Part shown: positions 1-47,906 of the stretch, piece after piece | Layout of the letters: each line of letters begins with the position of its first letter | Numbering within the stretch: position 1 is the stretch's first letter | Assembly: GCA_012841065.1 (NCBI GenBank) | Contig: DUVI01000053.1 | Location: 43,811 to 107,810, forward strand | Source: Bacillota bacterium | GTDB lineage: Bacteria; Bacillota; Sulfobacillia; Fermentithermobacillales; Fermentithermobacillaceae | Reading direction: 5' to 3' | DNA length: 64,000 nucleotides | The notes under the pieces: model-generated | Seen by the model: the letters and a program-made list of their open reading frames with translations, nothing else | The model's database searches: none | What the model was told of the DNA's origin: nothing | Position numbers and translations under genes: made by a program

Positions 1-989
1 CTGCCGATGATGATTTCGCCCTGTTCTTCAAGCCGGCGAATGATAGACACGATACGTTGCTGGGCCTCCTCTACATCCCGCAACCTCACAGGCCCAAGGT
101 AGTCTATGCTTTCCTTCAAAGTCTCCACAGCGCGGGACGACATGTTCCTGAAGAACTTGTTGGCCACATCGTCTGATGCGTTCTTGAGCGCAAGGGGAAG
201 GTCCCTGCTCAAGTCCACATCGCGCAACAACCGCTGCATCGACCTGTCATCGAGGTAGATAATGTCTTCGAACAAGAACATTCGCCGTTTTATTTCTTCA
301 GCCAGTTCCGGAGCTTCCATCTCTAAAGCTCCCAGGATGGTCCTTTCAGTCTGCCGGTCGACGTTGTTGAGGATGTCCACTATAGTGGCGACCCCGCCGG
401 CTTGGGTGTAGTCCTGGCCTGCCAGAGAAAGCACTCTGCGTTCCAGGATGCGTTCGATTTGTTTGACTACATCAGGGCTCGTGCGCTCCATCAGAGAAAT
501 CCGCCTTGCCACTTCCACTTGAAGGTCCGGTTCCAAAGATGCCAGGATTGAAGCAGCCTGTGATGCCGTCAAATAACTCAGTACCAGCGCTATTGTTTGA
601 GGAGATTCGCTTTCAAGAAAATTCAGTATCTGGGCTCCGTCGGATTTTCTCACGGTATCAAAAGGCTTAACCTGTAAAGATGAAGTAAGTCTTCTCAGCA
701 CAGTTTGAGCTTGTTCCGGGCCGAGAGCCTTTTCCAAAAGTTTCTTGGCGTATTCGATGCCGCCTTCTTCCAGATACTCCTGGGCAACGCACATCTCGTT
801 AAACTCTTCAAGTACCTTGTCCTTAACGTCCTGATCAATCTTACGCCTGGAAGCAATTTCTAAAGTGAGTACATCGATATCTTCTTCCCGCAGATGCCTC
901 ATAACTTGAGCTGAAAGGTCGGGCCCAAGGGTAATCAGTAATATCGCGGCCTTTTCCCTGCCTGACAAGTCTCCGATGTAACTGCTCAT
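1..989 (-). CDS. fliG: Flagellar motor switch protein FliG (C-terminally truncated by window edge)
   Basis: Minus-strand ORF running off the window start. ATG at 989 overlaps the fliF stop (TAATG). Translation (MSSYIGDLSGRGKAAILLITLGPDLSAQV...EIIIG) has the typical FliG N-terminus and sits directly downstream of fliF. Confidence 0.85.
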   Translation of the reverse strand, partial: MSSYIGDLSGREKAAILLITLGPDLSAQVMRHLREEDIDVLTLEIASRRKIDQDVKDKVLEEFNEMCVAQEYLEEGGIEYAKKLLEKALGPEQAQTVLRRLTSSLQVKPFDTVRKSDGAQILNFLESESPQTIALVLSYLTASQAASILASLEPDLQVEVARRISLMERTSPDVVKQIERILERRVLSLAGQDYTQAGGVATIVDILNNVDRQTERTILGALEMEAPELAEEIKRRMFLFEDIIYLDDRSMQRLLRDVDLSRDLPLALKNASDDVANKFFRNMSSRAVETLKESIDYLGPVRLRDVEEAQQRIVSIIRRLEEQGEIIIG

Positions 990-2521
990 TATCTCTCATC
1001 CTCCAAGAGCCACGACTTAATCAAGGTAGCAACCAGTTGCGGATTTGTGCGAGCCAGTCTCTCGACGTTGTCCCTGGACCTCTGTCTCGCCATCAGTTCA
1101 GGAGAAACAGCAGGAGCGCTTTCCAAAGCGAGCGAGGGTTCCTCTTCCAACACTGCGGCTATCCCTGCCTCGCGCTTGCGTCTTGCGATAATCAAGATTA
1201 TCGTGCCCAGCACAAGTGCTGCCGCGACTGCAATTGCGTATATGTAGACGCGCGGAAAACCTTCAGCAGGAGCAGGTGATTCATCAAACATCTGAGCCAG
1301 GCTGGTATCGAACACCATCCCGGTAACGGAAATCTGGTCTTGTCTTAAAGGATCCAACCCTAACGCTGCCGTAACCGTCTCGGCGATTGTGTCCCTTTCT
1401 GCTTCATTGAGGTTCTTGTTCACCACAACTGCTACTGAAAGCTGTTCAATCGCCCCGGGCACTATTAGGGTCTCTGTAATCCTCTCGTTGACCTCATAAT
1501 TCCGGAGCACCTCTGTACGCTGGTACTGGGATTCACCTTGTCCGGAGAATGAGTAAGAAGGCACATCGAGAGCTCCTGCTTGCCCGCCAGGAGGACTACC
1601 GGTACCCTGGTACGACTCGCTCGTTTCCTGTGAGCTCCGGAGCACTCCCGGAGGCTCTGATTCATACGTGGTATCGGTGATCCTGATCTGGTCAGCATTC
1701 AGCTTTGCGCGAACCTGGCACACTACGTTTCCCGGGCCCAACACAGGAGTAAGCAGACTAAGCAGCCTGTTTTCCAATTCCCTCTCTGCAGCAAATGTTA
1801 ACTCAAGCAGAGAATTCATGGATATGTCCTCCATACCCTGGCCATACGATACATCTTTTGACAGAAGTTTGCCTGAAGCATCTACCACGGTGACATTTTC
1901 CGGGGTAAGGCCCTCCACCGCCCGCGACACAAGGTTCATTATCCCCCGTACAGAATCTGACGTCAGGTTCTTGCCCGGCGCGGTCTTTACCAGAACTGAC
2001 GCAGTAGGTTGCTGCCTCTGGGACACGAAAACCGTATCCTCCGGCAAGGCAATATGGACCCTGGCATCTTCTATCCCTGACAAGGCTTTAATGGTTCTGG
2101 TGAGCTCCCCTGACAAGGCTCTTATGTACTGGACTCTCCGCTCAAAATCAGTCGACCATATTCCCGTTGAACCCACCGCCTCAAACCCTACAATCCCTGA
2201 CGACGGAAGCCCCATGGTTGCCAGCGACAACCTCACCCTGTGAACCCTGTCTGCGGGCACTCTTATGGTCTGCCCGCCGTCGGTGAGTTCATAGGGCACG
2301 CCTTGCTTCTCAAGTTCGCTGACTATGGCACCTGCATCTGTCGGTTCCAAGTTTGACCACAGGATTTCATAAGCAGGACCTCTTGTTGAATACATCACAA
2401 CAAGCACTATGAAGGCCAGGGCAAGCACACCGCCTGCCAAGACTGCCCATTGCTGCGTCTTGTTTAAGCCGGACCAGGTCTGCTTTATACCATTAGCAAA
2501 AGACGTAACAAACTCTGGCAT
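989..2521 (-). CDS. fliF: Flagellar M-ring protein FliF
   Basis: 510 aa with an N-terminal TM segment, a large periplasmic region and a C-terminal TM segment. Family-typical sequence, and it sits in the flgB-flgC-fliE-fliF-fliG order. Confidence 0.9.
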   Translation of the reverse strand: MPEFVTSFANGIKQTWSGLNKTQQWAVLAGGVLALAFIVLVVMYSTRGPAYEILWSNLEPTDAGAIVSELEKQGVPYELTDGGQTIRVPADRVHRVRLSLATMGLPSSGIVGFEAVGSTGIWSTDFERRVQYIRALSGELTRTIKALSGIEDARVHIALPEDTVFVSQRQQPTASVLVKTAPGKNLTSDSVRGIMNLVSRAVEGLTPENVTVVDASGKLLSKDVSYGQGMEDISMNSLLELTFAAERELENRLLSLLTPVLGPGNVVCQVRAKLNADQIRITDTTYESEPPGVLRSSQETSESYQGTGSPPGGQAGALDVPSYSFSGQGESQYQRTEVLRNYEVNERITETLIVPGAIEQLSVAVVVNKNLNEAERDTIAETVTAALGLDPLRQDQISVTGMVFDTSLAQMFDESPAPAEGFPRVYIYAIAVAAALVLGTIILIIARRKREAGIAAVLEEEPSLALESAPAVSPELMARQRSRDNVERLARTNPQLVATLIKSWLLEDER

Positions 2522-2918: not shown

Positions 2919-3377
2919 CTATGATCTGAACATGTCCAGCGCCTTCTGTATCATAGCTTTGGCAGCTTCCATGGCTGTAACATTGGCCTCATAAGACCTG
3001 GTTGCTGCCATCATGTCAACCATTTCAGTAACCACGTTTACGTTGGGATAAGTGACGTACCCGTCACTGTCGGCATCAGGGTGTCCCGGAGAATACACCC
3101 TGCGAAGAGGAGATGAATCCTCAATTACACCGGTTACCTTGACGCCTAAAGGATATGAGGGCATTTCTGCAGACGGCATTTGTGAAAGCAGTATGTTCCT
3201 GAAGGGAAAGCGGTCTTCCGTTCTTGGCGAAAATACAGATACCTTCCGCCGGTACGGCTGGCCGCTTTCTGTCCTGGTGCTCTCAGCGTTGGCCAGGTTG
3301 GATGCTATGACATCAAGCCTCAACCTCTGCGCTGTAAGCCCAGATGCGCTTGTTTCCATGGCAGAGAAGACTTTCAC
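2919..3377 (-). CDS. flgC: Flagellar basal-body rod protein FlgC
   Basis: 152 aa, N-terminal rod motif (SGLTAQRLRLDVIASNLANAESTRT), conserved operon position. Confidence 0.9.
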   Translation of the reverse strand: MKVFSAMETSASGLTAQRLRLDVIASNLANAESTRTESGQPYRRKVSVFSPRTEDRFPFRNILLSQMPSAEMPSYPLGVKVTGVIEDSSPLRRVYSPGHPDADSDGYVTYPNVNVVTEMVDMMAATRSYEANVTAMEAAKAMIQKALDMFRS

Positions 3378-3380
3378 CTA

Positions 3381-3794
3381 TTACCTCCTCCCTTCAGTGA
3401 TAGCTCTTCTCAAGAGCGAAAACTCTGCGGTCAATTGGCGGGATACTGCAGTGTAGTAGTAAGCGTTGGCAGATATTTCTGCCATCTCTTTGTCGATATC
3501 TACGCTGTTTCCATCCGGGGTAACGCTGGTCGTGTCAAGAGTAACGGCAATGGTGTCACCATGCCTCCCACGAACATGCATCGGATTTGTGACAGTAAGC
3601 TGTATGCGCGGCCTAAGCGCATCGTACAAATAATCCTCAAAATTGACTCTTGCCGCTTTGTAGCCCGGTGTGTCACTGTTGGCTATGTTGTTAGCCATAA
3701 CCTCATGCCTCAGCCATGCGCCCGTAAGCGCTCTCTGCATGATACTGGTTATGCTCACATCAACCCCCCCTAAGAAGCCAAAAACCTTCCGCAA
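3381..3794 (-). CDS. flgB: Flagellar basal-body rod protein FlgB (likely true start GTG at 3758)
   Basis: Rod-protein N-terminal motif (NNIANSDTPGYKA). The longest ORF begins with TTG at 3794 inside a terminator hairpin and has no RBS. An in-frame GTG at 3758 is preceded by GGGGGGG (3764-3770), which is a better start. Confidence 0.85.
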   Translation of the reverse strand: MRKVFGFLGGVDVSITSIMQRALTGAWLRHEVMANNIANSDTPGYKAARVNFEDYLYDALRPRIQLTVTNPMHVRGRHGDTIAVTLDTTSVTPDGNSVDIDKEMAEISANAYYYTAVSRQLTAEFSLLRRAITEGRR

Positions 3795-3829: not shown

Positions 3830-3935
3830 CCGCCCTTCGGTAGCCCGGCTATCGTAGCGGGAAGGACTGTCTTCTCGCCTTAGACCCGTGGCTTTGCGTC
3901 TCTGCCTTTAGGCAGATTTGCCTTTATCGGTTTGC
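3830..3935 (-). ncRNA. Cyclic-di-GMP-I (GEMM) riboswitch aptamer upstream of flgB
   Basis: Minus strand reads CCGATAAAGGCAAATCTGCC-TAAA-GGCAGAGACGCAAAGCCACGGGTCTAAGGCGAGAAGACAGTCCTTCCCGCTACGATAGCCGGGCTACCGAAGG. The GGCAAA...GACGCAAAGCC-CGGG-CU and GAUAGCC-GGG-CUACC blocks match the conserved GEMM-I core. An alternative hairpin (CTACCG-AAGGG-CGGTAG) shares the CUACC strand with the aptamer. Confidence 0.75.
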
Positions 3936-4026: not shown

Positions 4027-4803
4027 CTATCTTAGTTTTTTCAGTTCTTCCAGAAGTTTGGGGTTCAAAACCTTGATATATGTGCCTTTCATGCCCAGAG
4101 ATCTTGATTCAATGACCCCTGCAGACTCAAACTTGCGCAAAGCATTAACTATGACGGAGCGGGTGATGCCAACTCGGTCTGCCACCTTGGAAGCTACAAG
4201 GCAACCCTCCGTACCACCAAGTTCCTCGAATATATGTTTCATGGCGTTAAGCTCAGAAAACGACAAAGTTCCCAGGGCAACTTGAACTGCTGCACGCTGC
4301 CGGCTTTCTTCTTCGACACTCTCCTGCTTGTATCTGATCATCTCCATGGCAGCTATAGTAGCAGCATGCTCAGCGAGTATAAGATCGGCCGTTTCGAGAG
4401 GCCTTGATGTCCGGGCTAACACAAGGGTTCCCAGCCTGTTCCCACCGCCGACTACCGGCACTATTGTGGTGCACTTTCCCTTATACGGGCACTCGTGTCC
4501 CTCAAGGAACACACATTTGTCGGTGTCATGCTGGACATTTGCAGCAGTATCCCTGTACGTGTACAGTCTTTCTGCGTAAGAATCCGGAAATTCACTCTCT
4601 CTGAGCACTTCATTTTTCAGTACTTGGCAATCAAAATCATCTACAAGTGAATAGCCTAGGATACGGCCAAGTTTGTCCAAGATGTAGACATTACATTCCA
4701 GTGAATCCCGGAGCACCCTCGCGCTTGCCTGAAAGTCTACTTCTGTTGCAGCGATCCTTAGTAATTGGTTCATCTTGCGTGTCTTCTCAAGCAATGTCTG
4801 CAT
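4027..4803 (-). CDS. codY: GTP-sensing pleiotropic transcriptional repressor CodY
   Basis: 258 aa with an N-terminal GAF-like domain and a C-terminal wHTH (ADRVGITRSVIVNALRKFESAGVIESRSLGMKGTYIKVLN). Conserved position after hslU. Confidence 0.95.
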   Translation of the reverse strand: MQTLLEKTRKMNQLLRIAATEVDFQASARVLRDSLECNVYILDKLGRILGYSLVDDFDCQVLKNEVLRESEFPDSYAERLYTYRDTAANVQHDTDKCVFLEGHECPYKGKCTTIVPVVGGGNRLGTLVLARTSRPLETADLILAEHAATIAAMEMIRYKQESVEEESRQRAAVQVALGTLSFSELNAMKHIFEELGGTEGCLVASKVADRVGITRSVIVNALRKFESAGVIESRSLGMKGTYIKVLNPKLLEELKKLR

Positions 4804-4827: not shown

Positions 4828-6231
4828 CTACAAGATATACCTGGTCAAATCTGTGTCGCTTACCAGGCCTGTTAATCTATCCAGCACGTACTTCCTGTCA
4901 ACTACTAATTCCCCTTGCATACCGTCAGGCGCCTCAAACAAGACTTGCTCGAGCAGTTTTTCCATAACCGTGTGAAGCCGTCTGGCGCCGATGTTCTCGC
5001 TCTTTTGATTCACTGTAAATGCCATCTTTGCTATTTCCATTATGCCGTCAGGCGTGAATTCAAGGTGAACTCCGTCTGTTTCCAGCAGGGCTTTATACTG
5101 ACGGGTGAGTGAGTTTTCAGGCTCAGTGAGGATCCTCACAAAATCTTCTTCTTCGAGGGCATCCAGCTCAACTCTGATGGGAAAACGGCCCTGCAACTCG
5201 GGAATCAGGTCTGATGGCTTGCTCACATGAAATGCGCCTGCGCCTATGAACAATATGTGGTCTGTTCTTACAGGACCGTACTTGGTTATCACGGTTGTTC
5301 CTTCGACTATTGGCAAGAGGTCTCTTTGGACGCCTTCCCGGGAAACGTCGGGGCCTGCACCGGTTTCCCTTCCGGCAATCTTGTCTAGTTCGTCAAGGAA
5401 CACGATTCCCAGCTTCTCACACCGTCTTATGGCTTCTACGACGATGGAATCCTGGTCAACGAGTTTGCCGGCTTCTTCCTGTGTGAGAATTCTCCGGGCT
5501 TCCCTTACCGGAACTCTCCGTTTTCTCGTCCGCTTGGGCAGAAGTCCCCCGAAAATATCTTGCATGTTGATTTCCATTTCCTGCATGCCCATACCGTCGA
5601 AGAACTCTACCCTGGGGGTAGTGGTATCTTCCACTTCAATTTCAATCTCCCGGTCCTCAAGCTCTCCGTTCCTAAGCTGCTGGCGGATAAGTTGTCTTCT
5701 GGCACGGGCCTGGCGGACCTTCTCACTGAAGTCGTCTTCTTCGTCGTGCTCCTGTTCTTGCTGCACAGGGTTGAACAATACTTCAAAAGGATTAGGTGTT
5801 GTTTTCCGCCTCTTCGGCACCGGGCAAAGTATGTCAACAAGCCGATCTTCCGCCAGGCTCTCAGCCCTGTCTTGAACGTTCCGGAGGTTTTCCTTCCTGA
5901 CCATACTCACAGCATTTTCGACAAGATCCCGTACTATCGACTCAACATCCCGGCCAACGTAGCCCACTTCGGTGAACTTTGAAGCTTCCACTTTCACAAA
6001 GGGGGCATTTACGAGTTTGGCCAATCTCCTGCAAATCTCCGTCTTTCCTACCCCAGTAGGGCCAATCATCAGGATATTCTTGGGAATAATGTCGTCCTGC
6101 AAATCACCTGTAACCTTCTGCCGTCTCAACCTGTTCCTGAGAGCTATGGCAACGGCACGCTTGGCCTGGTTCTGTCCCACTATATATTTATCCAGTTCAG
6201 CTACTATCTCCCGAGGAGTCAAGTCTCCCAT
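4828..6231 (-). CDS. hslU: ATP-dependent protease ATPase subunit HslU
   Basis: 467 aa with an AAA+ Walker A ([10 protein letters not shown]) and an I-domain insertion. Family signature throughout. Confidence 0.95.
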
Positions 6232-6265
6232 AGCACACCATCCCCCATAAACCGGGCAATCAAAA

Positions 6266-6823
6266 TCATCCCAATTCTTCGACGATAATATTGTCGTTAG
6301 TATATATGCACAAAGATGCCGCTATCTTCAAAGATTCCCTGGCAATGGAAGCGGCATCCATTTCTGTGAATTTCATAAGCGCCCTGGCAGCTGCTGTAGC
6401 ATATGCCCCTCCTGAACCAATCGCCAGTACAGGCTCGTCAGGTTCAATTACTTCGCCGGTACCCGAAACCAACAGCAAATGGTTCTTGTCCATGCAAAGC
6501 AGCATTGCCTTTAGTTGTCTCAACACCCTGTCAGTGCGCCACTCTTTAGCAAGATTAACTGTAGATTTTAGCAGATCGCCTCTTGTTTCTTCAAGATGGC
6601 CTTCCAGCTTGTCAAACAGCGTAAGCGCATCTCCCACGGATCCTGCAAACCCCGCGATAACGGAATTCTTGTAGAGTTTTCTTACCTTCCTAGCTGTTGA
6701 TTTAAGGATGGTATGGTTTGTCTCAAGAGTGACCTGCCCATCCCCGGCCATTGCCGCTTTGCCACGTACCCTCACGGCAAGCACTGTGGTGCTCAGGATA
6801 CGAGGCTCATGTTCAACTGTCAT
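6266..6823 (-). CDS. hslV: ATP-dependent protease subunit HslV (CodW-type with short N-terminal extension)
   Basis: Ntn-hydrolase motif TTVLAVR...GDGQVT...GSGG. The longest ORF starts at 6853. An internal ATG at 6823, preceded by AAAGGGG, is preferred and overlaps the xerC stop by 11 nt. Confidence 0.9.
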
Positions 6824-7832
6824 GTTTTCCGCCCCTTTCAAAATCGCTTCCATGTATGTCAGGCTGCCCTTCCGGTTGATTCACCTTGGCCCTCGGGTGG
6901 GCACTCTTGTACACTTGCCTCAATCGCTCAGGCATGACATGAGTGTATATCTGGGTGGTCTTGATGCTTGCATGCCCGAGCATCTCCTGAACCGAACGCA
7001 GGTCAGCACCGCCCGACAGCAGGTGGGTGGCAAAAGAATGCCTCAAGGTATGGGGCGAAAGCCCCTCAGGGTCAATTCCGGCACGCAAAATGTACTTGTG
7101 AAGTATCCTCCTAATGGATCTGTCAGACAGCCTTTTGCCAAATCGGTTGATGAAAAGAGGTTTGCTCATTACAGCCAATTCCTGGCTTTGTTTTTCGGTC
7201 TTGCTCTCAAGTAAAGGCCGCCCCTCATCCAGGTAACGTCCAATGGCATCCAAGGCCATTGAACCCAGGGGAACGAACCTTTCCTTGCCGCCCTTGCCTG
7301 TGACCTGCACAAACCCTAGGGAGTAGTCTACGTCGCCTATATTGAGTCCCGCCAATTCGCTAATACGCAGGCCTGAACTGTAAAGCAATTCTACAATCGC
7401 ACGATCACGCTTCCCCAGAGGAGTAGCGGTGTCGATTACCGACAGGATGCGGGCAATTTCGTCCTGAGAAAACACCTTGGGTAAGTAGGTGTGGGTCTTC
7501 CTGGAAGAAACGCGCTTGGCAGGATTCTCATCAATCACGCCCCTGCGCGTCAGAAAACGGCAGAAGCTTCTTACGGCAGACAGTTTCCGGGAAATCGTGG
7601 CGCCTTTGTAATCCTGCCTGCCCAAGTATATAGCGAATCTGCGTATACATTCCGGCGTGATATCTGCTGAAGTCAGATCTTCAACCCGCTTGCCACAGAC
7701 CTTTTCGGTGAGAAAACAAAAAAACTGGCCTAGGTCCTGTGAGTAAGCCTGAACGGTATTATGACTTTGGGTCTTCGATACACTTATTTCTACAAGAAAA
7801 TCTTCCTTCAGTTGAAGTAACGAATGAGTCAT
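6813..7832 (-). CDS. xerC: Tyrosine recombinase XerC (CodV-type)
   Basis: 339 aa with an N-terminal SAM-like domain and the catalytic R..HxxR..Y residues ([24 protein letters not shown]). It is the first gene of a codV-hslV-hslU-codY arrangement. Confidence 0.9.
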
Positions 7833-17084: not shown

Positions 17085-18317
17085 GTGAACAGGCCCGGAG
17101 CTGCCCACAACAACCGCTGGATATCAACTCGACTGACAGGCACTGAACGGAAGTGGTTGATCGCATACATGGGCTTAGTGGCAGGAGTGGGGCTGAGTTT
17201 CTCGGCTTTGGTGCTCATAGACTACAACCCGCCGGACCCATACACCACAGCAATTTTCGCAATACTGGGCATCATAAGCTTCAACCAACCCATAAAACTC
17301 GCGCCTAAAGTCGAGCTACATGCAACATGGCCCATTCTGTTTGCCGCCCTTTATTGTTACGGCCTCCCCCTGGCCATCCTTACAGGGGTGCCGGCTATGC
17401 TTTCTCAAAGCATTTTCCTGCAGAAGGCTCTGCTTACCTCCTTATTTAACGGCGGGCAGTTGGCGATCAGCCTTGGCGTGGCAAACATCACCGCTCAACT
17501 TGTGAGGAGTATTGCGCCTCCCACGATAACCTGTGAAATAATCGCCCTGGTGCTGGGTATGAGCGTCTTCGACCTGTGCAATATTATCCTGGTAAGCATA
17601 GCTGTGTGTAAGGAACAGCAAGTAAGCTGGAGGGCTTGCTTTGAACAGATGACCTTTGTGAACAGACGTTGCCTTCTCCCCCTTATGTACCTCCTCTCCC
17701 TGACAAGCGCGCTGCTGTGCTCCTTCATTGGGAACGTTGGGCTTTTGCTGACTTTTGCCCATGTGCTTGTAGTATCACATCTAATGCGGTTCCAGCGGGA
17801 ACTAGATTTGAGAACCGAGGAATCCCGCACCGATCCTTTGACTAAGGCGCTAAACTACAGATACCTGGAAGACTGGTTGAACTTCGAGTTCCCTAAATTG
17901 GCGGCGGAGAACACCCCGTGTAGCTTCGTGTTCATCGACTTAGACGGTCTTAAGCGGATTAACGATACCTTCGGGCATGAAGCCGGAGATTCAGTATTGG
18001 TTGACGTAACAAAAGCCCTGTCCGCCACTACCAGGCCGCAAGATGTGATCATCCGGTACGGCGGCGACGAATTCGTGATAATCTGTCCGGGCACTGACAT
18101 AGAAACTGCAGAAGCAATAGGCAAGAGCCTTATTGCCGTTTGCAGCACACCTGTATACTATAAAGACTCCTCTTTTAACATCGGCTTAAGCGTCGGCATA
18201 GCATCTTACCCTGAAGATTCAACAGTCGGCAGAGACCTTATCCGGCTGGCTGACTGGGCGATGTACCATGCCAAGAAGTGCGGCGGCAACATTGTGTGCA
18301 AGGCCAGTGACCTGTAA
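17085..18317 (+). CDS. Membrane-anchored diguanylate cyclase (polytopic N-terminal domain + GGDEF)
   Basis: 410 aa with about 6 predicted TM helices followed by a GGDEF domain carrying an intact active site (RYGGDEFVI) and DPLT..NRR. GTG start with RBS GGAGG. Confidence 0.9.
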   Translation: MNRPGAAHNNRWISTRLTGTERKWLIAYMGLVAGVGLSFSALVLIDYNPPDPYTTAIFAILGIISFNQPIKLAPKVELHATWPILFAALYCYGLPLAILTGVPAMLSQSIFLQKALLTSLFNGGQLAISLGVANITAQLVRSIAPPTITCEIIALVLGMSVFDLCNIILVSIAVCKEQQVSWRACFEQMTFVNRRCLLPLMYLLSLTSALLCSFIGNVGLLLTFAHVLVVSHLMRFQRELDLRTEESRTDPLTKALNYRYLEDWLNFEFPKLAAENTPCSFVFIDLDGLKRINDTFGHEAGDSVLVDVTKALSATTRPQDVIIRYGGDEFVIICPGTDIETAEAIGKSLIAVCSTPVYYKDSSFNIGLSVGIASYPEDSTVGRDLIRLADWAMYHAKKCGGNIVCKASDL

Positions 18318-20351: not shown

Positions 20352-21362
20352 CTAACGCAATTTCCGACCCACGGGATCAGCGAGTAATGAAAGCCCCATC
20401 CTCTGTTTTGCCCGCTTAAGCACTTGGGAGCTCACTTCGTTGGCCTTTGCCGCTCCTTGCTTGAGAATGGTTGCAACCATCCCCGACTCTGCATATCGGC
20501 GGTACTTCTCATGTATTGGCGCAAGGGCCTCGATTATTGCGTCGGCAAGCGCTTGTTTGAAATCTGCATATCCCCTACCTTCAAACTCTCTTTCGATCTC
20601 GGAAAACTCGAGCCCGGTACACAAGGAATAGATGGTTATAAGGTTGGCTATTGCCGGCTTGTCTTCAGGTGAATACACTATTTCCCGCCCTGAATCTGTG
20701 ACCGCCCTCCGGACCTTGTTTACGATCTCATCTTTGGAATCAGACAAGCTAATGTAACCCAAAGGATTCGGATCCGATTTCGACATTTTCTTCTCAGGGT
20801 CCTGAAGAGACTTTATCCGTGCCCCGAACTTAGGGATTATGGCCTCGGGTATCTTGAAAGTCTCTCCGTAACGGCTGTTGAAGCGCTGTGCGACATTTCT
20901 GCACAGCTCAACATGCTGCTTCTGGTCTTCACCTACAGGAACCACATCGGCATCATATAGCAAAATGTCTGCGGCCATAAGTACCGGGTATGTAAACAGC
21001 CCCGACGAAAATGACTCGTTACCTTTCGACTTCTCTTTGAACTGAGTCATCCTTGATAACTCACCGAAAGTAGCTACGCACTCAAGCATCCACGAAAGCT
21101 CAGCATGGCACGGCACGTCTGACTGAACGAACAGCGTAGACTTTTCCGGGTCGAGTCCCGCAGCAAGATAGTATAGCGCAGTGTCGTTTATCAGACGTGG
21201 TAATTCCTTTGGATCTTGATACACGGTTATCGCATGGAGATCTACGATGCAATAATAGCAGTCATACTCATCCTGGAAATCTGTAAACCTCTTGATTGCA
21301 CCGAAGTAATTCCCTAAGTGCAAAACTCCTGACGGCTGAACGCCTGAAAATGCTCTCTTCAA
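20352..21362 (-). CDS. trpS: Tryptophan--tRNA ligase
   Basis: 336 aa with HIGH-like (QPSGVLHLGNY) and KMSKS motifs. TTG start with RBS AGGAGGGTGG. Confidence 0.95.
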   Translation of the reverse strand: MKRAFSGVQPSGVLHLGNYFGAIKRFTDFQDEYDCYYCIVDLHAITVYQDPKELPRLINDTALYYLAAGLDPEKSTLFVQSDVPCHAELSWMLECVATFGELSRMTQFKEKSKGNESFSSGLFTYPVLMAADILLYDADVVPVGEDQKQHVELCRNVAQRFNSRYGETFKIPEAIIPKFGARIKSLQDPEKKMSKSDPNPLGYISLSDSKDEIVNKVRRAVTDSGREIVYSPEDKPAIANLITIYSLCTGLEFSEIEREFEGRGYADFKQALADAIIEALAPIHEKYRRYAESGMVATILKQGAAKANEVSSQVLKRAKQRMGLSLLADPVGRKLR

Positions 21363-21730
21363 AGACCACCCTCCTACTTAGCAGCGCCGGCTGCGTGTTG
21401 CAGACGGCCAGCGTTGTTATTGTATCATCACCCGCCGGGTTTCAAGCATTGTACACCCTTGATGCATATCCACCAAGACAAGTGCGAACTACTAGATTAT
21501 GCACATAATAGGAGTGATTGTTTCGATTATCATAGGTGTCTACACCCTGTCCTGGTCATGGATATTGCTCAGAGACAATAACCGTGCCGGTGCAGCCTGG
21601 TCCTTCTTGCTGGCCATAAGTTCAGTGGCCACATCCCTTTACTACTTCATCCAACACGGCTTCTTCCCCTAAGCAGGCTATACCCTTCAAAGGTGTCCCA
21701 AATGACATACTTAGATTATAGATGAGTTCC

Positions 21731-21764
21731 ATACAGAGAAAAAGCCTGGAGCTAAACCCCAGGC
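21731..21764 (-). terminator. Intrinsic terminator downstream of the LuxR-type regulator gene
   Basis: Minus strand reads GCCTGGGG-TTTAG-CTCCAGGC followed by TTTTTCTCTGT. Confidence 0.65.
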
Positions 21765-21849
21765 CAAAAAGTGTAGCTGTCGCATCTCGGGGGGTGATCT
21801 GCGGCAACCATTACAACTCAATTACATAATCGAGCCAAGGCACATTTTT

Positions 21850-22572
21850 TTATATAGGACCAAAAGACCTATTTTGAGCCGAGCAAAGCGCCTTAAGTAC
21901 AGCAATGGCTGCCTGGGTCCTATCCCGGACCCCCAATTTCTTGTAAACATTGTAAAGGTGGTTCTTCACAGTTTTTTCGCTGATAAACAGTCGTTCAGCA
22001 ATTGCCTTGTTGGACATGCCCTTGGCTACAAGATTAAGAGTTTCCAGCTCCCGTTCGCTGAGTTTGCTGATGTCGCCCAGAGTCGACTCGACGCAACCGA
22101 AAATCTCATAGAAATTGGGTACACTAGTGACTGCCAGCCGGTCCATTATTGAAGACGACACGTACAAGTCGTTTCTCGCAGCTGCAGAGATGGCTGAAGC
22201 AATCTGGTCCTCGGTTGCATGTTCGTCAACGAACCCGTATACACCCACCCGACAGTACTCTGCTATGCTGAACCACTCCAAACCTTGAGCCATGAGCACA
22301 AAGCTTGAATTTGCATATCGCCGTTTCAGCGCAGATATTCTCTCTAATGTCAGTTGCTTGTCAGAGCGGTTGCTGCAAACCACTATTACGTCGTAGCAGG
22401 CAGCAGTGGCAGGCCGCCTGGAATCAGGGTACGCGCCACCTTTATACCATAGGCGCACGTCGCCCCTCTCATGGAACATGGCCTGAAATCCCCTTGGCAT
22501 TGAAGGTTGGTCTACTGCAATCAGAATGTCAAGCATACAATGCCTCCAATGAAAAGTCTCACTAGGTATCAT
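21850..22572 (-). CDS. LuxR/FixJ-family transcriptional regulator with atypical receiver-like N-terminal domain
   Basis: C-terminal HTH_LuxR (LSERELETLNLVAKGMSNKAIAERLFISEKTVKNHLYNVYKKLGV). The N-terminal approx 150 aa is receiver-like but lacks the canonical conserved K and the P..G after the Asp position. Confidence 0.75.
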   Translation of the reverse strand: MIPSETFHWRHCMLDILIAVDQPSMPRGFQAMFHERGDVRLWYKGGAYPDSRRPATAACYDVIVVCSNRSDKQLTLERISALKRRYANSSFVLMAQGLEWFSIAEYCRVGVYGFVDEHATEDQIASAISAAARNDLYVSSSIMDRLAVTSVPNFYEIFGCVESTLGDISKLSERELETLNLVAKGMSNKAIAERLFISEKTVKNHLYNVYKKLGVRDRTQAAIAVLKALCSAQNRSFGPI

Positions 22573-22587
22573 CGTACAAAAACCTGG

Positions 22588-23598
22588 CTAGATAAGACCT
22601 TCATCGGATAAACGTTGCTTGCTTGATTCAAGCGTTTTCATTCCGTATTTGCCACCTGCAGCTATAAGATCCTTAATTCGAGGGAACCTGCCTTCCCTCA
22701 GAAGGTTACGTACAGGTTCTGTGCCTACGAGAAACTCTATAGCAGGCACTGGGGACTTAACTCCCTGGATGAGTTCTTGATAGAGAGCTCCACTGAACAC
22801 CCGGGAAAGCCTGGCGGCAAATTCCTGGCGGGAAGCTGAACTCACAGTATTAGCCAGGTTTTCAAGCCCAGCTACGGCATCTGATGCCGGAACCACCATC
22901 AGCACACTTGCGCCTCTTTCCGCAGCACTCACCGCCTGCCACGCCAGGTTCTCATCTATCCGTATGTCCAACGCGACAACATCGGCGCCTATCCAGACCG
23001 CCCTTTGAGTCACGTCAAACACCTTCCCCAAGTACCCGGTTTCAATCTGGTTCACAAAACTCCTGGAAGGTCCCAGCAAGTATTCGCTTGCCTCACAAAT
23101 CCAAACGATATGATTGAAAAATGTTCGGTTTATCTTCTGCAGGATTGAAGCAAGCGTGGTGGTTTTCCCCGCCCGGGGCTTTCCGCAAATCAAGAATACC
23201 CCTGAGCTAGCAGCAGCAAACTCTATAACCTTTCCGGGAACATTCAGCATATCAATACCCGGCAAGGCGTCGGGCAAGAAGTGCATGACAGCAGAAGGCC
23301 CGTCCACGGTCATGATCAGATCAACCCTGCACCTCGCTCCCGGACACAGGGCAAACGCGAAACGGGCAAACCCTGTTGAAGCGAAAGCCTCCTTATGGGG
23401 CGAGGGTACTTGGCTATCGAGGAACTCCTCTATGTGGGTCTTCTCAAGCGGCGAGTCGCCAAAGGGAACCGGTTGGTCCAGACCTATCCTGGCAAGGGGC
23501 TTGTTTTCAGGCATTATATACACATACGAAGCGCCATGTTCGAAACACGCCCGGGCGATACCGGTAAGGTAAGACCTGCCTGAACCGTCATGTGACAT
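22588..23598 (-). CDS. PilT-like (type IV pilus retraction ATPase family) protein with degenerate catalytic motifs
   Basis: 336 aa that aligns along its length to PilT. The Walker A region is retained as GKPRAGKTTTL. The Asp-box, Walker B Glu and His-box positions are substituted (WICEASEY, DVVALDIRID, MVVPA). Confidence 0.7.
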   Translation of the reverse strand: MSHDGSGRSYLTGIARACFEHGASYVYIMPENKPLARIGLDQPVPFGDSPLEKTHIEEFLDSQVPSPHKEAFASTGFARFAFALCPGARCRVDLIMTVDGPSAVMHFLPDALPGIDMLNVPGKVIEFAAASSGVFLICGKPRAGKTTTLASILQKINRTFFNHIVWICEASEYLLGPSRSFVNQIETGYLGKVFDVTQRAVWIGADVVALDIRIDENLAWQAVSAAERGASVLMVVPASDAVAGLENLANTVSSASRQEFAARLSRVFSGALYQELIQGVKSPVPAIEFLVGTEPVRNLLREGRFPRIKDLIAAGGKYGMKTLESSKQRLSDEGLI

Positions 23599-23613
23599 CG
23601 TGCTTGCCTCCTC

Positions 23614-24144
23614 TCACACTGTGCCCATACGCCTTTTTACCAGTTTCTCAAGCAATCTCATGAACTTGGTGCCCACAAACTCCTTGTGTCCGATGCGCTC
23701 CACAAGCACCGTGTGGCAACCTACAATATTCCCACCAAGTACATCGGTAAAGATCTGGTCACCGATGACGCATGTTTCATGTGGCTTTGAATCAAGTAAC
23801 TCAAGGGCTCTTCTGAAGAAACGGGAAATGGGCTTCCTGGCTCCCACAATCAGTTCGGTATTTAGTCTATGTGACACTTCTACAATGGTAGGAGCAGGCC
23901 TGGCATTTGTGAGTATCAGAGTCTTAAACCCGCTTCGGTGCAGGGAATCGAACCAATCAGCCAGTTCTTCAGCCACTCTGTAATCCCGCCATGGAACAAG
24001 AGTGTTGTCAAGATCGGTGATAATAGACGTAATTGCCCGTTCCTTAAGCCAGGCAGAGGGCAAGTCATATATTGTCTCAATGTGCAAAGACGGAGTCAGA
24101 AGTTGCATGATAGATCTACGGCGAACCTGTGTATTGCTTGACAC
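23614..24144 (-). CDS. yqeG: YqeG-family HAD-IIIA phosphatase
   Basis: 176 aa with HAD motifs (ITDLDNTL ... LTNA ... GDQIFTDVLGGN). GTG start. Confidence 0.85.
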   Translation of the reverse strand: MSSNTQVRRRSIMQLLTPSLHIETIYDLPSAWLKERAITSIITDLDNTLVPWRDYRVAEELADWFDSLHRSGFKTLILTNARPAPTIVEVSHRLNTELIVGARKPISRFFRRALELLDSKPHETCVIGDQIFTDVLGGNIVGCHTVLVERIGHKEFVGTKFMRLLEKLVKRRMGTV

Positions 24145-24238
24145 TATCTAAGACACCCCTCCCTATATTACCCAATTTCAACCCGGTAGTTAATCATATC
24201 CTGCAATGGGCTCTATAGGAAGGGGCGGTTCGCATGGC

Positions 24239-24961
24239 CTAGGTTGCACAAGACCTGCACACTTTGGCAAGTTTGGCAAGGGCCCGCTTTTCAATGCGAC
24301 TCACATAGGAGCGGGATATTCCAAGCATATTGGCGATTTCTCTTTGAGTCTTCTGGAAGTTGCCGTTCAGTCCATACCGGTACTGCAAAACCTGCTTCTC
24401 CTTATCATCCAGCAGATCAAACCGTGCAAGCACGTTTTCAGCCTGAACCTTAGCAGTAACCACATCTGCAATATCAGGTTCCTGATCTTTGATGATATCG
24501 ATGTAAGACACATCGCCGTCGTCTGAATCAGAAGTCAAAGGTTCAAACAGGTGGACTTCACTTCTGCTGTTCTTGGTGGCTCTTAGATGCATGAGGATTT
24601 CGTTTTCAATGCACTTTGATGCGTATGTTGCCAGCCTGGTCCCCCTGTCCTGGCAAAAAGTGTCGATGGCCTTAACAAGCCCTATGCTCCCGATAGATAT
24701 CAGATCTTCTACATCCTGGGGGTTCGGGTCAAATTTCTTCACGATATGGGCCACCAACCTCAAGTTATGTTCCACCAGCACGTTCCTGCTGGCCATGTTG
24801 CCTTCCTTTACTCCGTCTAAGTGAAAAGACTCGTCAGCTTCTGAGAGGGGCGGGGGAAAATGGTTGCCTGTAAGATATCCGAAGCAATTCAGGACTGCCT
24901 CGAGAATAATTGCAGCAATGCCAAGAAGCAGTTGATGCAAGCTTATGTTCCCTCCGGTCAA
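24239..24961 (-). CDS. sigK: Pro-sigma-K (mother-cell late sporulation sigma factor), uninterrupted
   Basis: 240 aa with a hydrophobic pro-sequence ending GNHFPPPLS (compare B. subtilis NNAFPQPLS), then NVLVEHNLRLVAHIVKKF and the C-terminal ISRSYVSRIEKRAL, in one continuous ORF. Confidence 0.9.
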   Translation of the reverse strand: MTGGNISLHQLLLGIAAIILEAVLNCFGYLTGNHFPPPLSEADESFHLDGVKEGNMASRNVLVEHNLRLVAHIVKKFDPNPQDVEDLISIGSIGLVKAIDTFCQDRGTRLATYASKCIENEILMHLRATKNSRSEVHLFEPLTSDSDDGDVSYIDIIKDQEPDIADVVTAKVQAENVLARFDLLDDKEKQVLQYRYGLNGNFQKTQREIANMLGISRSYVSRIEKRALAKLAKVCRSCAT

Positions 24962-25034: not shown

Positions 25035-26507
25035 TCACACAGTATCAGAGAGGTTTGACGGTTTGCGCCTCACGACCACTATCGGGGTTTGTTGTTCCTG
25101 GTTACCTGCAGGATTACACGACATCACTTCTTCAAGCCATGCAGGGTCAACTCCTGAAGAATATCCCACAGCCCACGCCACCCCAAGATCGTTGGCATCT
25201 ACGATAGCAGCTTCGCACCCTAACTCCCGGGCCATCCTATTTGACAGCCCTGAAGGATCCTCAGGCCCCATAATCACGTAATAGTCATAGGGCGGCAGGC
25301 TGCCCAACACATCGTCGATTTGCCCTGCATCCTGGCCCCCGACAACATAGAACCAACCCTTCCTGCCGAGAAGCTTGCCCACTGCGCCTGCTGCCGCTGC
25401 AACAAGCGTTCTTAACGTTCCAATCTCCTCGAGCAATACTTGCATTGACAAAGGGTTAGCCATAGGTGCAGCGCCGCCAAAGGGGACGTCTTTCTGATCT
25501 ACGAAGCGCGACAGGGTCTTGGCGACAAAACCAGGTTCAACTGCGCCTTCCATGAAAATACGCCCTTCCATGAGCCCTGCCACACATGAAGATAGGGTTG
25601 CTATGTCTTTAGGCTGGGGTTGGGTCACGTGTTGCTTCATTGCCTCAACAGGGTCATCGTTCTCCACAAACAATTTGGTCTTCACAGGTATTAACTCAAC
25701 ATCTGAAGGAGGCGCCTTGCCCCGCATAGGAATTGGAGGCAAGTCTTCTTGTTGTCCAAACCCAAGGGTCTCCCAGGCCTGCCTCAGCAACAAACTTCTG
25801 GGATACGCCTTTATGCCCAGGGACAGGATATCCCGGGCCTTGTCCCTCTGCCCCCTGTCAATCAAGCCGCTGACAAGTATGTGAAATTCATGGTCGTGAA
25901 AGTTTGATGACTCCAACTTGATGAACTCGGCCAGATGGTCGATGAGTTCATCTTCCATGCCCTTTTCCTCCAAGATACGGCACACCCGCTTGTAAGCCAC
26001 TTTCAGCGGGTTCTTCTTATTGAGTTGCCTGCATATGTCAAGCGCTTGCTTGAACGACTCAAAAGCGCTGTCGGTGTCTTTCAGGAAAAAGTACTGGATA
26101 TCTCCTATGAGCAGATAAGGCCAAGGGTTCTCAGGTTCAATCTGTGACAGACGCTGCGCCACATTGAGCGCGCTGTGGTACTGTTTGTCTTTGATAAACA
26201 CATGGATAAGCAGCCGGCCGCATCTAAGTGAGGGCCTTTTTTCAAGGGATTTCTCGAGCAGCACCTTTGCCTCTTGCCTGTTGCCGGAACGAATCCGCTG
26301 CTTAGCTGCCATGTACACGACATATGGATGATGTTCGGGCCTAGCGTATTTGGCAAACCCTTTGGAGGCAACCGACTTCAGGCCGAGCACATCAAGGAAC
26401 CACAACCAGTAGACTATCGCTGAGCCCAATAGGAAGAACCCCTTTCTATCCACGCATCTACTCACAAATGGTACCACATGAACAGTGTGCGGTCTACCTG
26501 CAACCAA
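25035..26507 (-). CDS. Membrane-anchored TPR-repeat protein with C-terminal CofE-like (F420-0:gamma-glutamyl ligase family) domain
   Basis: N-terminal TM helix, TPR-like repeats (about residues 60-260), and a C-terminal about 180 aa with GPEDP...D.NDLG.AW.VG and TPIVVVRRK blocks resembling the CofE fold family. Domain assignment is by eye. Confidence 0.5.
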   Translation of the reverse strand: MVAGRPHTVHVVPFVSRCVDRKGFFLLGSAIVYWLWFLDVLGLKSVASKGFAKYARPEHHPYVVYMAAKQRIRSGNRQEAKVLLEKSLEKRPSLRCGRLLIHVFIKDKQYHSALNVAQRLSQIEPENPWPYLLIGDIQYFFLKDTDSAFESFKQALDICRQLNKKNPLKVAYKRVCRILEEKGMEDELIDHLAEFIKLESSNFHDHEFHILVSGLIDRGQRDKARDILSLGIKAYPRSLLLRQAWETLGFGQQEDLPPIPMRGKAPPSDVELIPVKTKLFVENDDPVEAMKQHVTQPQPKDIATLSSCVAGLMEGRIFMEGAVEPGFVAKTLSRFVDQKDVPFGGAAPMANPLSMQVLLEEIGTLRTLVAAAAGAVGKLLGRKGWFYVVGGQDAGQIDDVLGSLPPYDYYVIMGPEDPSGLSNRMARELGCEAAIVDANDLGVAWAVGYSSGVDPAWLEEVMSCNPAGNQEQQTPIVVVRRKPSNLSDTV

Positions 26508-28200
26508 GCAACTGCTCAGCTATCTTTCTGAAGAGGGGGGCAGCTATAGAAGGCCCGTCACCGGATCTTTCACAAAACACGCAGATCACATACTTAGGCG
26601 ACAGGATTGGAGTCCAGCCTACGAACCACGCCTGGTTTGAAGCAGGGCCATCGTTCATTTCTGCTGTTCCCGTCTTGCCTGCACTGCCGAAACCTGGCAC
26701 CCAAGCTGCCTTGCCTGTACCTTCTAGGGTAGAAAGCAGCAGCGCTTCCTGCAAAAACTGGGATACCTTCCCGGAAAACAAGGTCTTTTCCGGGAAGTCT
26801 GCACCTGCAACGAGCCCTGGATTCTTCCATTTCCCGCCGCATGCGACGGCTCTGTAAAAACACGCTGCTTGAACCGGGGTAACTGTAAGATAGCCTTGGC
26901 CAATAGAGAAATTGCCCACATCACCTGAGAACATCGAGTTTGGTTCAGGCAGGATCCCGGCAGATTGCTGGGAAAGGGGCAGGTGCAACTTATTGCCAAA
27001 GCCACATTCTACAGCCCAGTCAATCAACTCTTGAGGCGGTATCCTCAACCCGACCTGAATCAGGGTGCAATTGCACGACTGGGCCAGTGCTTGCTTTACC
27101 GTAATGCTCCCGTGACCTTCAGGCGAAGAACCACACCTTATTACGGTAGAGCCAATCTCGATCCGGCCGTCGCACTCAAACACTTCGTCAGGAGTTACAT
27201 AACCCTTCTCAAGGGCCAAGGCCAGCACCACAGTTTTCCAAATCGAGCCTGGGGTAAAATCGCTGATATTTCTGTTGACGAAAGGAGCATCGGGAAGGAG
27301 GAAGTACTCTTCAGGATTGTTTTGATCGTACTGGGGCCTGGACGCCATTGCAAGGATTTCACCGCTCATTGCATCCAATACAACCACGCCACCCCTCCCC
27401 ATCCCCTCTTGGTCCAAGACACGCTCCACCTTGTACTGGATATTGACATCCAGCGTAGTAAGTAGATCTTGAGGATACTCTCCTGTGAAACCCATCCTCA
27501 CACCTGTTCCGGGGATCTCAGAACCATCTCCCGTGACCAGGGTTCCCACCCATGCAGAGGTCCCTCCTGCAAGGCTGGTTTGGAACCAGCTTTCAAGCCC
27601 GCTCTCTCCCACGTTGTCCTTTGGGTTGACGTATGCATTGGGCCTTATGTGTCCCACCACATGCCTTGCCAGAGATCCGGGTCCGTATCTGATTTCCTCC
27701 GGGATCACAACAAGCCCAGGAATGGATTTATGCATTATCGCTGCTATCTGCTCAGGAGGCAACCCTCTCAACAGTTTGAACGGAGCACTGTGAGCATCCA
27801 GGATTGCTCGAAGGCTGTCTTCATCCATCCCTGTAAGTGCTGCAACCTCGTCTACAAACCTCTGCTTATCTTCTATCTTAGAAGGGAAAACAGCCAGAAC
27901 TGAGTGCCAGGACGGGTAATGAAGCGGCACACCGTTTATGTCAAGTATCCGGCCCCTAGCCAAAGCTACAGGCACGCTTTCCCGCCTTTGCAACGAAGCA
28001 GGCCTTATGTACCTGATCCCGCTAATAGAATCGATGATCTGGTAATTGGCCAGCAAACCCAGGAAAAACAAAAACACGCAGCCGAACGCAAACAGCACTT
28101 GCTTTATCCTGGAACAGGTGCCGGGGCAGCAGTCTTCTTCGTTTCCGCACACTCCAGACCTCTCAACCTTGCTCACACTGGCCTCCCCAAGCATGAACAA
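26494..28200 (-). CDS. Class B penicillin-binding protein (SpoVD/FtsI-like transpeptidase), no PASTA domain
   Basis: TM anchor, dimerisation domain, and transpeptidase motifs SxxK (GSIWK), SxN (SCN) and KTG (KTGTAE). Adjacent to sigK, so spoVD-like. Confidence 0.85.
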   Translation of the reverse strand: MFMLGEASVSKVERSGVCGNEEDCCPGTCSRIKQVLFAFGCVFLFFLGLLANYQIIDSISGIRYIRPASLQRRESVPVALARGRILDINGVPLHYPSWHSVLAVFPSKIEDKQRFVDEVAALTGMDEDSLRAILDAHSAPFKLLRGLPPEQIAAIMHKSIPGLVVIPEEIRYGPGSLARHVVGHIRPNAYVNPKDNVGESGLESWFQTSLAGGTSAWVGTLVTGDGSEIPGTGVRMGFTGEYPQDLLTTLDVNIQYKVERVLDQEGMGRGGVVVLDAMSGEILAMASRPQYDQNNPEEYFLLPDAPFVNRNISDFTPGSIWKTVVLALALEKGYVTPDEVFECDGRIEIGSTVIRCGSSPEGHGSITVKQALAQSCNCTLIQVGLRIPPQELIDWAVECGFGNKLHLPLSQQSAGILPEPNSMFSGDVGNFSIGQGYLTVTPVQAACFYRAVACGGKWKNPGLVAGADFPEKTLFSGKVSQFLQEALLLSTLEGTGKAAWVPGFGSAGKTGTAEMNDGPASNQAWFVGWTPILSPKYVICVFCERSGDGPSIAAPLFRKIAEQLLGCR

Positions 28201-47225: not shown

Positions 47226-47906
47226 TTATTTCCAGATATAGCGCCTGGCGACGCTGTCGCCTATATACTGAATGCCTTGGACCAGGCATATGAGTACAAC
47301 TACACACATTGTCATAATGACAGGTTCAAAACCCTGGTAACCGTACCTGATTGCCAGATTGCCCAAACCACCCCCTCCTATTGCACCTGCCATGGCTGAG
47401 TAGCCGACCAGATTCACAGCGGTTATGGCTGCGCCTGATATCAGCGAAGCTAAGCATTCAGGAACAAGCACATACTTGACTATCTGGTACCATGAAGCTC
47501 CCATGGAAATGCATGCATCGACCACACCAGGTTCCACAGTGAGCATGGCAGACTCAGTAATCCTCGCTACAAAGGGGATTGCCGAAATGGTAAGCGGCAC
47601 CATGGCCGCCACCGTCCCGACAGATGTGCCTGTAATAAGCCTTGTAAAAGGGACGATGGCTACCATCAGGATCACAAAGGGAATGGATCTTCCTATATTG
47701 ACTACTGTGGTCAAGACCGAGTAAGTTGCGTCGTTGCTGGCCAAACCCCGTGGTCCGCTTAGAACAAGCCAAATCCCCAAAGGAGTCCCTATGAGTTCAG
47801 CAAACACCAGGGAAACCAGTACCATAGCTATTGTCTCGCCGGTGGCAACGGCCACAGGTTTCAGCACACTCTGGGATAACGATGAACTCCAGGCCAAAGT
47901 CAGCAT
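47226..47906 (-). CDS. metI: Methionine ABC transporter permease MetI
   Basis: 5-TM BPD-type permease. ATG 47906 overlaps the metN stop. The ORF track start 48008 is an upstream extension. Confidence 0.9.
   Translation of the reverse strand: MLTLAWSSSLSQSVLKPVAVATGETIAMVLVSLVFAELIGTPLGIWLVLSGPRGLASNDATYSVLTTVVNIGRSIPFVILMVAIVPFTRLITGTSVGTVAAMVPLTISAIPFVARITESAMLTVEPGVVDACISMGASWYQIVKYVLVPECLASLISGAAITAVNLVGYSAMAGAIGGGGLGNLAIRYGYQGFEPVIMTMCVVVLICLVQGIQYIGDSVARRYIWK

Follow-up and report, generated by a model that had tools for sequence, protein, structure and literature searches.

We analyzed a stretch of 64,000 nucleotides (nt) from a Bacillota bacterium (contig DUVI01000053.1, positions 43,811 to 107,810 of the forward strand), which is called the window below. 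At positions 21850-24144 of the window, yqeG is followed by a gene for a PilT-like protein that lacks the residues needed for ATP hydrolysis, here called pseudo-PilT, and by a gene for a LuxR-type regulator (luxR) with a receiver-like domain. The original prediction had described these as three minus-strand genes closed by a terminator, and all three open reading frames (ORFs) were present in the ORF list in this order. No terminator-like signal was found on the minus strand in either intergenic spacer, and because the genes also share the same strand, they probably form one transcription unit with the following features.

23614-24144, minus strand: yqeG, HAD-IIIA phosphatase, first gene of the unit, GTG start at 24144 (TIGR01668, 118.5 bits; family cut-off 89.1 bits)
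22588-23598, minus strand: pseudo-PilT, 336 amino acids (aa), two-domain PilT fold (profile, structure and family-alignment matches)
23158-23184, minus strand: retained P-loop of pseudo-PilT, G139-K-P-R-A-G-K145-T-T147 (PDB and family alignments)
21850-22536, minus strand: NarL/FixJ-type regulator, pseudo-receiver plus LuxR/GerE helix-turn-helix (HTH) domain (PF00196, 80 bits)
21743-21765, minus strand: intrinsic-terminator-like hairpin at the end of the unit, first base 84 nt past the luxR stop

The assignment of the first gene to the YqeG HAD phosphatases held in the profile search, and its HAD motifs read as intact in the sequence (motif I DLDNT, motif IV GDQIFTD). Gaps of 15 nt had been predicted on both sides of the middle gene. 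The first of these was confirmed: 15 nt separate the yqeG stop from the ATG of pseudo-PilT, and a GAGGAGG ribosome-binding site lies within them. The second was not confirmed. A luxR start at the ATG at 22572, which gives such a gap, was rejected as a longest-ORF artefact, since it has no ribosome-binding site and four relatives have ATT in its place. Translation starts instead from the ATG at 22536, which is conserved in closer relatives and has GGAGG (22547-22543) at 7 nt before it, so that the spacer is 51 nt and the regulator 228 aa long. The predicted terminator was found as a 10-pair hairpin with a T run behind it. One weak 5-pair terminator match at 23076-23063 falls within the pilT-like coding sequence.

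When searched with phmmer against the PDB, the PilT-like protein aligned end to end with the PilT proteins of Aquifex, Thermus, Geobacter and Pseudomonas (E=7e-27 to 1e-18), with 2ewv as the best match (E=7e-27). The TIGR01420 profile (PilT/PilU) covered the whole protein at half its cut-off (157.8 vs 319.1 bits), and PF00437 (T2SSE) stayed just below threshold (22.8 vs a gathering score of 24.9). An AlphaFold2 model from a ten-sequence alignment reached a pLDDT of 89 and a pTM of 0.88, and Foldseek placed it on PilT4 and P. aeruginosa PilT with TM of 0.87-0.89. According to the model, the full two-domain fold is kept, with an N2D and a RecA-like C-terminal domain. Judged by its length, an AIRNLIRE-like motif, the missing N1 domain and the profile ranking, the protein is assigned to PilT and not to PilB.

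Compared with the PilT/PilU retraction ATPases (A. aeolicus 2EWV, P. aeruginosa 3JVU/3JVV and G. metallireducens PilT4 6OJX), pseudo-PilT belongs to the same length class and fold, and shares the P-loop, the N-domain Arg-x-Arg (R89, R91), the AIRNLIRE-like helix and the GxKxGMxT block. In Walker A, the canonical GPTGSGKS is GKPRAGKT in the window protein, which satisfies GxxxxGK[ST]. Unlike the retraction ATPases, pseudo-PilT lost the acidic pair ED of the Asp box (IEDPIE to ICEASE, with the last Glu, E172, kept), the catalytic Glu of the GEMRD motif in Walker B (VGEMRD to LDIRID, Glu to Ile), both histidines of the His box (GHLV..LHT to GASV..VPA), and the last ~25 residues of PilT, as it ends at ...GLI. 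Neither the general base nor the histidines that sense the gamma-phosphate are present. Profile, PDB and family alignments thus agree with the original prediction, which had read a full-length PilT-family protein with a P-loop and substituted catalytic motifs. From these substitutions, pseudo-PilT is very likely catalytically dead, and it would almost certainly be unable to work as an ATP-driven motor.

The retained residues were conserved in the family. D211 at the end of the Walker B strand is invariant in the 12 family members, and the next residue is never Glu, being Asp in P0137 only. The PilT-specific C-terminal block (E288...PVRNLLREGKF...GxKYGMxT) is the best-conserved block of the family; here the AIRNLIRE motif reads PVRNLLRE in the window protein, and N298, L299 and L300 are invariant or nearly so. 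In total, 24 columns are invariant across the family. In P. aeruginosa PilT, the C-terminal block is needed for retraction and dispensable for ATPase activity.

A search of 5.8 billion proteins gave 7 pseudo-PilT clusters at 46-100% identity, after which identity dropped to ordinary PilTs at 28% or below. A profile search of 1.84 billion representatives gave about 7 cluster representatives and added four clusters at a greater distance, with P0135, P0136, P0137, P0140 and P0143 among them. The family comes to about 12 lineages in total, and the same classes of motif loss were seen in 12 of 12 members. Two other sets of matches were set aside. Matches of 708-1024 aa just below the family in the representative search were, where inspected, fused tandem canonical PilT modules with additive scores. 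A metagenome pattern scan was rejected as a census because its patterns lay on motifs shared with canonical PilTs and 77 of its 80 loci were ordinary pilT; these 77 loci served as outgroups.

Six GTDB species carry pseudo-PilT. Three are Candidatus Fermentithermobacillaceae and the rest are unclassified Bacillota or Eubacteriales metagenome-assembled genomes. Those relatives that have a name fall in DTU015 ('Ca. Fermentithermobacillia'), an uncultured thermophilic class whose members were described as thermophilic anaerobic fermenters and predicted to be flagellated spore-formers (PMC10215811).

The pseudo-PilT reading frame was intact, at 331-353 aa, in about 12 lineages and at identities down to 30%. 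Pairwise ratios of nonsynonymous to synonymous substitution (dN/dS) were 0.16-0.23 for pseudo-PilT, 0.12-0.20 for the regulator, 0.10-0.14 for yqeG, 0.05-0.09 for trpS and 0.03-0.08 for sigK; these values are rough, as dS was ~0.9-1.7 in closer pairs and larger still between distant lineages, which is close to saturation or past it. Pseudo-PilT evolves 2-3x faster than its neighbours (37-69% identity vs 77-86% for trpS). With dN/dS of ~0.2 and frames that remain intact down to 30% identity, pseudo-PilT is under purifying selection and is no pseudogene.

The triplet had been left open to the objection of being an accident of one genome. It recurred within one uncultured class, in about 10 lineages that have diverged from each other. 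To describe the neighbourhoods, two context genes upstream of the unit are needed.

24239-24961, minus strand: sigK (NF004471, 297.9 bits; cut-off 252)
26494-28200, minus strand: penicillin-binding protein 2 (PBP2)/SpoVD-like transpeptidase, upstream of sigK in relatives and outgroups alike

The gene order PBP-TPR-sigK-yqeG-pilT*-luxR-trpS-yifB, where pilT* is the pseudo-PilT gene, was found in the window, L009-L013 and L022, and L007 and L028 match it as far as their sequence extends. The short contig L112 has at least yqeG-pilT*-luxR. In the most divergent triplet-bearing lineage (L014/L032), sigK is not between the TPR gene and yqeG (about 6000-7000; also L033), so adjacency to sigK is not universal even within the clade. 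Pseudo-PilT was found without luxR, as yqeG-pilT* only, in L031 (P0140) and L029/L030 (P0143), and in L030 pilT* is followed by a small 57-aa ORF and then trpS. The regulator was found without pseudo-PilT in L024/25, L026/27 and L114, which have PBP-sigK-yqeG-luxR-trpS and also lack the TPR gene. Pseudo-PilT lies directly downstream of yqeG in every lineage examined, with an overlap of 4 nt in L031, and yqeG is the one constant neighbour of both genes. Since two lineages have pseudo-PilT alone and three have the regulator alone, the regulator is a facultative, not an obligatory, partner of pseudo-PilT. The signalling pair that had been proposed as a possibility is weakened by this distribution.

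The TPR gene (25035-26507, minus strand) encodes a membrane-anchored protein, overlaps the PBP gene by 14 nt and is very conserved, with dN/dS of 0.06-0.09. The ~240-aa C-terminal domain of its product had no Pfam or PDB sequence match; homologues carry PF01996 (CofE/F420-0:gamma-glutamyl-ligase-like), including TPR fusions in Caldisericum. The gene was present in every pseudo-PilT locus with upstream flank available and absent in the three LuxR-only lineages. We rejected this co-occurrence as a functional link, because PF01996 is widespread and the pattern needs only two events.

Two conserved non-coding elements were found in alignments of the intergenic regions.

24156-24173, minus strand: conserved element TGGGTAATATAGGGAGGGG just upstream of yqeG (intergenic alignment, nine lineages including LuxR-only ones)
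22566-22574, minus strand: 9-mer CGAT(G/T)ATAC in the pseudo-PilT/luxR spacer, ~30 nt upstream of the luxR start codon (spacer alignment)

The first element holds TAATAT (24170-24165) and the ribosome-binding site GGGAGGGG (24163-24156), and could serve as an extended -10 or as a signal for translation. The 9-mer was matched in 8 of 8 aligned lineages, including one in which the flanking proteins are only 37-43% identical, and may be a promoter or operator for luxR. By eye, neither element gave a convincing match to sigma-A, E, K or G promoters.

Comparison with the outgroup loci pointed to the origin of pseudo-PilT. In L086, a PBP2/SpoVD-like gene, sigK (362.6 bits) and yqeG are followed by a 161-aa ORF, pilB, a canonical pilT and pilC. 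The order yqeG-pilB-pilT-pilC was found in L037/L038 and L034, and in L080 yqeG is a few kb upstream of pilT. In L045, L051, L055, L060 and L092 the order is PBP-sigK-pilT, and L045 continues into ftsZ-spoIIGA-sigE. The outgroup pilT genes beside sigK are catalytically canonical. Other bacteria with sigK thus have pilT at the address downstream of a SpoVD-like PBP, sigK and yqeG. By parsimony, pseudo-PilT would be a positional descendant of this pilT, which stayed behind when the locus lost pilB, pilC and the pilins. The position between trpS and sigK/spoVD had been taken as a hint at a sporulation-stage role. The same address is occupied by canonical pilT in L086 and L045, so it is inherited synteny, and position alone says little on a sporulation role of the dead copy.

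Like the pilT of L045 and L086, pseudo-PilT is downstream of a SpoVD-like PBP and sigK; unlike it, these genes are canonical. C. perfringens has a documented pilT-ftsA-ftsZ operon, where pilT lies apart from the main pilus locus and serves a real pilus (PMC6958937). Neither ftsA/ftsZ nor the sigE cluster is adjacent to pseudo-PilT. A semi-degenerate PilT paralogue was found in L035 (JAALLR010000263.1, 6941-7987), with EN in the Asp box, GELPD, GH..FPA and a short tail. It is followed directly by pilB, canonical pilT and pilC, yqeG lies 4.5 kb upstream of it, and its sequence may represent an evolutionary intermediate toward the dead form.

The outgroup pilB genes that come after yqeG encode an N-terminal MshE-type cyclic di-GMP (c-di-GMP)-binding domain (MshEN, 59.6-71.4 bits).

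L086, 5267-6961: pilB with MshEN
L037, 4497-6968: pilB with MshEN
L034, 5271-6974: pilB with MshEN

As had been predicted, pilus genes were absent around the triplet: none was found among the ~45 largest ORFs scanned in the window, and none in the flanks of the relatives' loci. The description of a closed DTU015 genome reports flagella, spores and gas vesicles, and pili are never mentioned in the paper or its supplements (PMC10215811). This silence is weak evidence and no proof of absence.

The regulator carries a LuxR/GerE HTH (PF00196, 80.1 bits), and no PF00072 receiver was matched by Pfam at the sequence level. In its AlphaFold model (pLDDT 77), a (beta-alpha)5-like receiver pattern precedes an HTH of four helices, and Foldseek gave LiaR/VraR, RcsB, VpsT, NarL and DesR as structural neighbours; the N-terminal domain is thus modelled as a CheY-like receiver fold. 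The best NCBIfam match was CsgD (71.7 bits), far below its cut-off. The receiver site was compared by aligning 27 family members with four canonical relatives, and the predicted loss of the conserved Lys and of the phosphorylation signature was borne out. The acidic pair DD is V-D/E in the family (V-D in the window protein). The phospho-acceptor Asp is Cys in the window regulator and Ser, Gly, Leu and others elsewhere, and only P0031 and P0033 keep it. The receiver Thr is Ala, Leu or Val (Ala in the window protein), and the Lys is Glu within a conserved F(V/I)DE(H)A motif. Across the alignment the HTH block does not vary, and a C-terminal FGP tail is conserved.

The regulator family is confined to the same uncultured clade. 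No cognate histidine kinase was found in its conserved neighbourhood, and the only kinase in the window (55954-57669) adjoins its own sigma-54 response regulator. On these substitutions, we regard the regulator as a phosphorylation-independent NarL/FixJ-type transcription factor. VpsT and CsgD likewise combine a receiver fold and a LuxR/GerE HTH with missing phospho-acceptor chemistry. The c-di-GMP motif of VpsT is W[F/L/M][T/S]R. A VpsT-like c-di-GMP site was rejected for the regulator, as the window protein has LYVSS and the family does not have W..R at this place; its own F(V/I)DE(H)A motif at the Lys site and the FGP tail also set it apart from these regulators.

On balance, we consider it rather likely that pseudo-PilT is a catalytically dead positional descendant of pilT that was kept for a non-motor role. 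In most lineages, Mg-nucleotide could still be bound by the P-loop Lys and Thr, D211, E172 and the two arginines, with closure of the inter-domain cleft but no turnover. The protein would be made together with YqeG via translational coupling. In oligomeric state and cellular role it would be a non-hydrolysing ring or adaptor that is still able to hold nucleotide, resulting in a static ring or switch rather than a motor. For the window protein, judged by its motifs, the chances of retained nucleotide binding seem about even. Precedents have been reviewed: PilB acts as a nucleotide-state-dependent regulator of exopolysaccharide, and ATPase-dead PilT as an adaptor for PilU (PMC11656802). They show that the fold can act without hydrolysis or in signalling. 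Those precedents are engineered mutants or active motors in pilus systems, whereas in pseudo-PilT the catalytic residues were lost naturally and lineage-wide, and no pilus context was seen.

Several observations weigh against this reading. The Walker Lys is Arg in P0135/L022 and P0140, so nucleotide binding is not secure across the family, and P0143 is without the arginine pair (R89, R91) and the Asp-box Glu E172. In three lineages, Ser replaces the first P-loop Gly. The selection estimate carries the roughness of near-saturated dS, and the 'ancestral' state is one of synteny parsimony and not of a tree. The evolutionary distances of pseudo-PilT, LuxR and YqeG co-vary (partial r 0.68-0.78 vs 0.21-0.24 for SigK), with r=0.88 and partial r=0.78 for pseudo-PilT/LuxR and partial r=0.68 for pseudo-PilT/YqeG. 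As the pairs are non-independent and fast genes tend to correlate, these values are only suggestive of a tighter coupling among the three than assumed. Finally, as the pilus search covered the window and the flanks, a role within a pilus machine may be compatible with the data.

Such a role is the substance of one alternative, in which pseudo-PilT docks on the PilC-type platform of a type IV or competence pilus encoded elsewhere in the genome and there assists or brakes an active ATPase without being active itself, comparable to ATPase-dead PilT in Vibrio cholerae, with which PilU still drives retraction. Conservation of the PilT-specific C-terminal region above all other blocks fits this idea, as do the semi-degenerate PilT beside pilB-pilT-pilC in L035 and the reported finding that a Walker-box-dead PilT works through PilU (review PMC11656802). 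Against it stand the lack of any pilus gene in the window or in the relatives' flanks and, weakly, the closed DTU015 genome description that is silent on pili. We regard this alternative as unlikely.

The original prediction had proposed a nucleotide-sensing signalling pair as a possibility. In such a dedicated two-protein module, pseudo-PilT would be a nucleotide sensor (ATP, c-di-GMP or similar) that binds the pseudo-receiver directly and controls it. In its favour, about 10 lineages have both genes side by side in one orientation without an intervening terminator, an unphosphorylatable receiver needs another input, the window protein keeps its P-loop, the pseudo-PilT and LuxR distances are correlated as given above, and the window encodes elements of c-di-GMP signalling (a riboswitch and a GGDEF protein). 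However, each gene occurs without the other in several lineages, and the basis assumed for sensing was not constant, with the Walker Lys and the first P-loop Gly replaced in several lineages, as given above, and the Arg fingers lost in P0143. The luxR gene has its own ribosome-binding site and the spacer element could be its own promoter. The VpsT-type motif is absent, and the distance correlation was also seen with YqeG, among non-independent pairs. Direct regulation of the LuxR protein by pseudo-PilT in any form would be quite unlikely, and the dedicated sensor module is distinctly improbable.

The functional partner could instead be YqeG and not LuxR, for example with the dead ring presenting or sequestering the substrate of the phosphatase, through a link between yqeG and pilus ATPases that predates the clade. 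yqeG is the one invariant neighbour, at a 15-nt gap or a 4-nt overlap, and the YqeG and pseudo-PilT distances co-vary. It also directly precedes pilB-pilT-pilC in the unrelated L034 and L037/L038, and in L086 it is 120 nt upstream of the 161-aa ORF and pilB-pilT-pilC. However, this adjacency may be plain inherited gene order, and the three LuxR-only lineages have retained yqeG although they lack any PilT gene. We know of no reported functional link between YqeG and a pilus ATPase, and think that there is little chance of this explanation being correct.

A decaying, functionless remnant, which would suit the faster evolution of pseudo-PilT, its lost catalytic motifs and the P-loop eroding in some lineages, is effectively refuted and barely credible in view of unbroken frames of 331-353 aa in ~12 lineages, even where identity falls to 30%, dN/dS of ~0.2 with 24 invariant columns, a confidently predicted fold, and a conserved ribosome-binding site and coupling to yqeG.

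For a dead descendant of pilT kept for a non-motor role, one specific and highly speculative version can be formulated: a class that lost its type IV pili would have kept a PilT paralogue as a nucleotide-loaded, non-hydrolysing ring, co-translated with YqeG and feeding a phosphorylation-independent LuxR-type regulator of a late developmental or envelope programme. If true, this would be the first natural exaptation of the PilT fold for signalling without a pilus. If pseudo-PilT works outside a pilus at all, the secretion-ATPase superfamily would have a natural pseudoenzyme, and with it a way to probe roles of the PilT ring beyond hydrolysis. pilT, often with yqeG and pilB, has a long-standing address by sigK and a SpoVD-like PBP in spore-former-like loci, and this bears on the unexplained pilT-ftsA-ftsZ linkage in Clostridium. 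In annotation, 'twitching motility protein PilT' and 'response regulator' should be avoided for these genes.

The region 21300-24300 gave no match to RNA families. The trpS leader (21363-21740, minus strand, ~380 nt) had no T-box and no other Rfam match even at E<=1. This absence was unexpected, as tryptophanyl-tRNA synthetase genes of Firmicutes often carry a T-box. The plus strand carries a 57-aa ORF (21499-21672) between the luxR terminator and trpS, and two hydrophobic stretches were seen in its translation. Gene calls also include it in L001-L004, L025 and L030, where it is conserved, with 54% identical residues even in the distant L030.

The c-di-GMP-related features of the window are as follows. 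A c-di-GMP-I riboswitch (3836-3932, minus strand, 83 bits) is just after codY (4027-4803) and directly upstream of flgB-flgC...fliF.

3381-3794, minus strand: flagellar gene behind the riboswitch
2919-3377, minus strand: flagellar gene behind the riboswitch
989-2521, minus strand: flagellar gene behind the riboswitch

By analogy, this flagellar operon is probably shut off by c-di-GMP, apparently an arrangement of a known kind, as in the riboswitch-mediated flagellar shut-off of C. difficile. A membrane diguanylate cyclase (MASE9 + GGDEF) is encoded at 17085-18317 on the plus strand, 3.5 kb from the triplet; it is at the same place in L001, L002 and L004 and not in L003 and L005.

A SAM riboswitch (48689-48805, minus strand, 90.7 bits) was found upstream of a methionine-type ABC transporter, which is an ordinary arrangement.

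46354-47178: NlpA lipoprotein of the transporter, behind the SAM riboswitch
47226-48008: permease of the transporter, behind the SAM riboswitch

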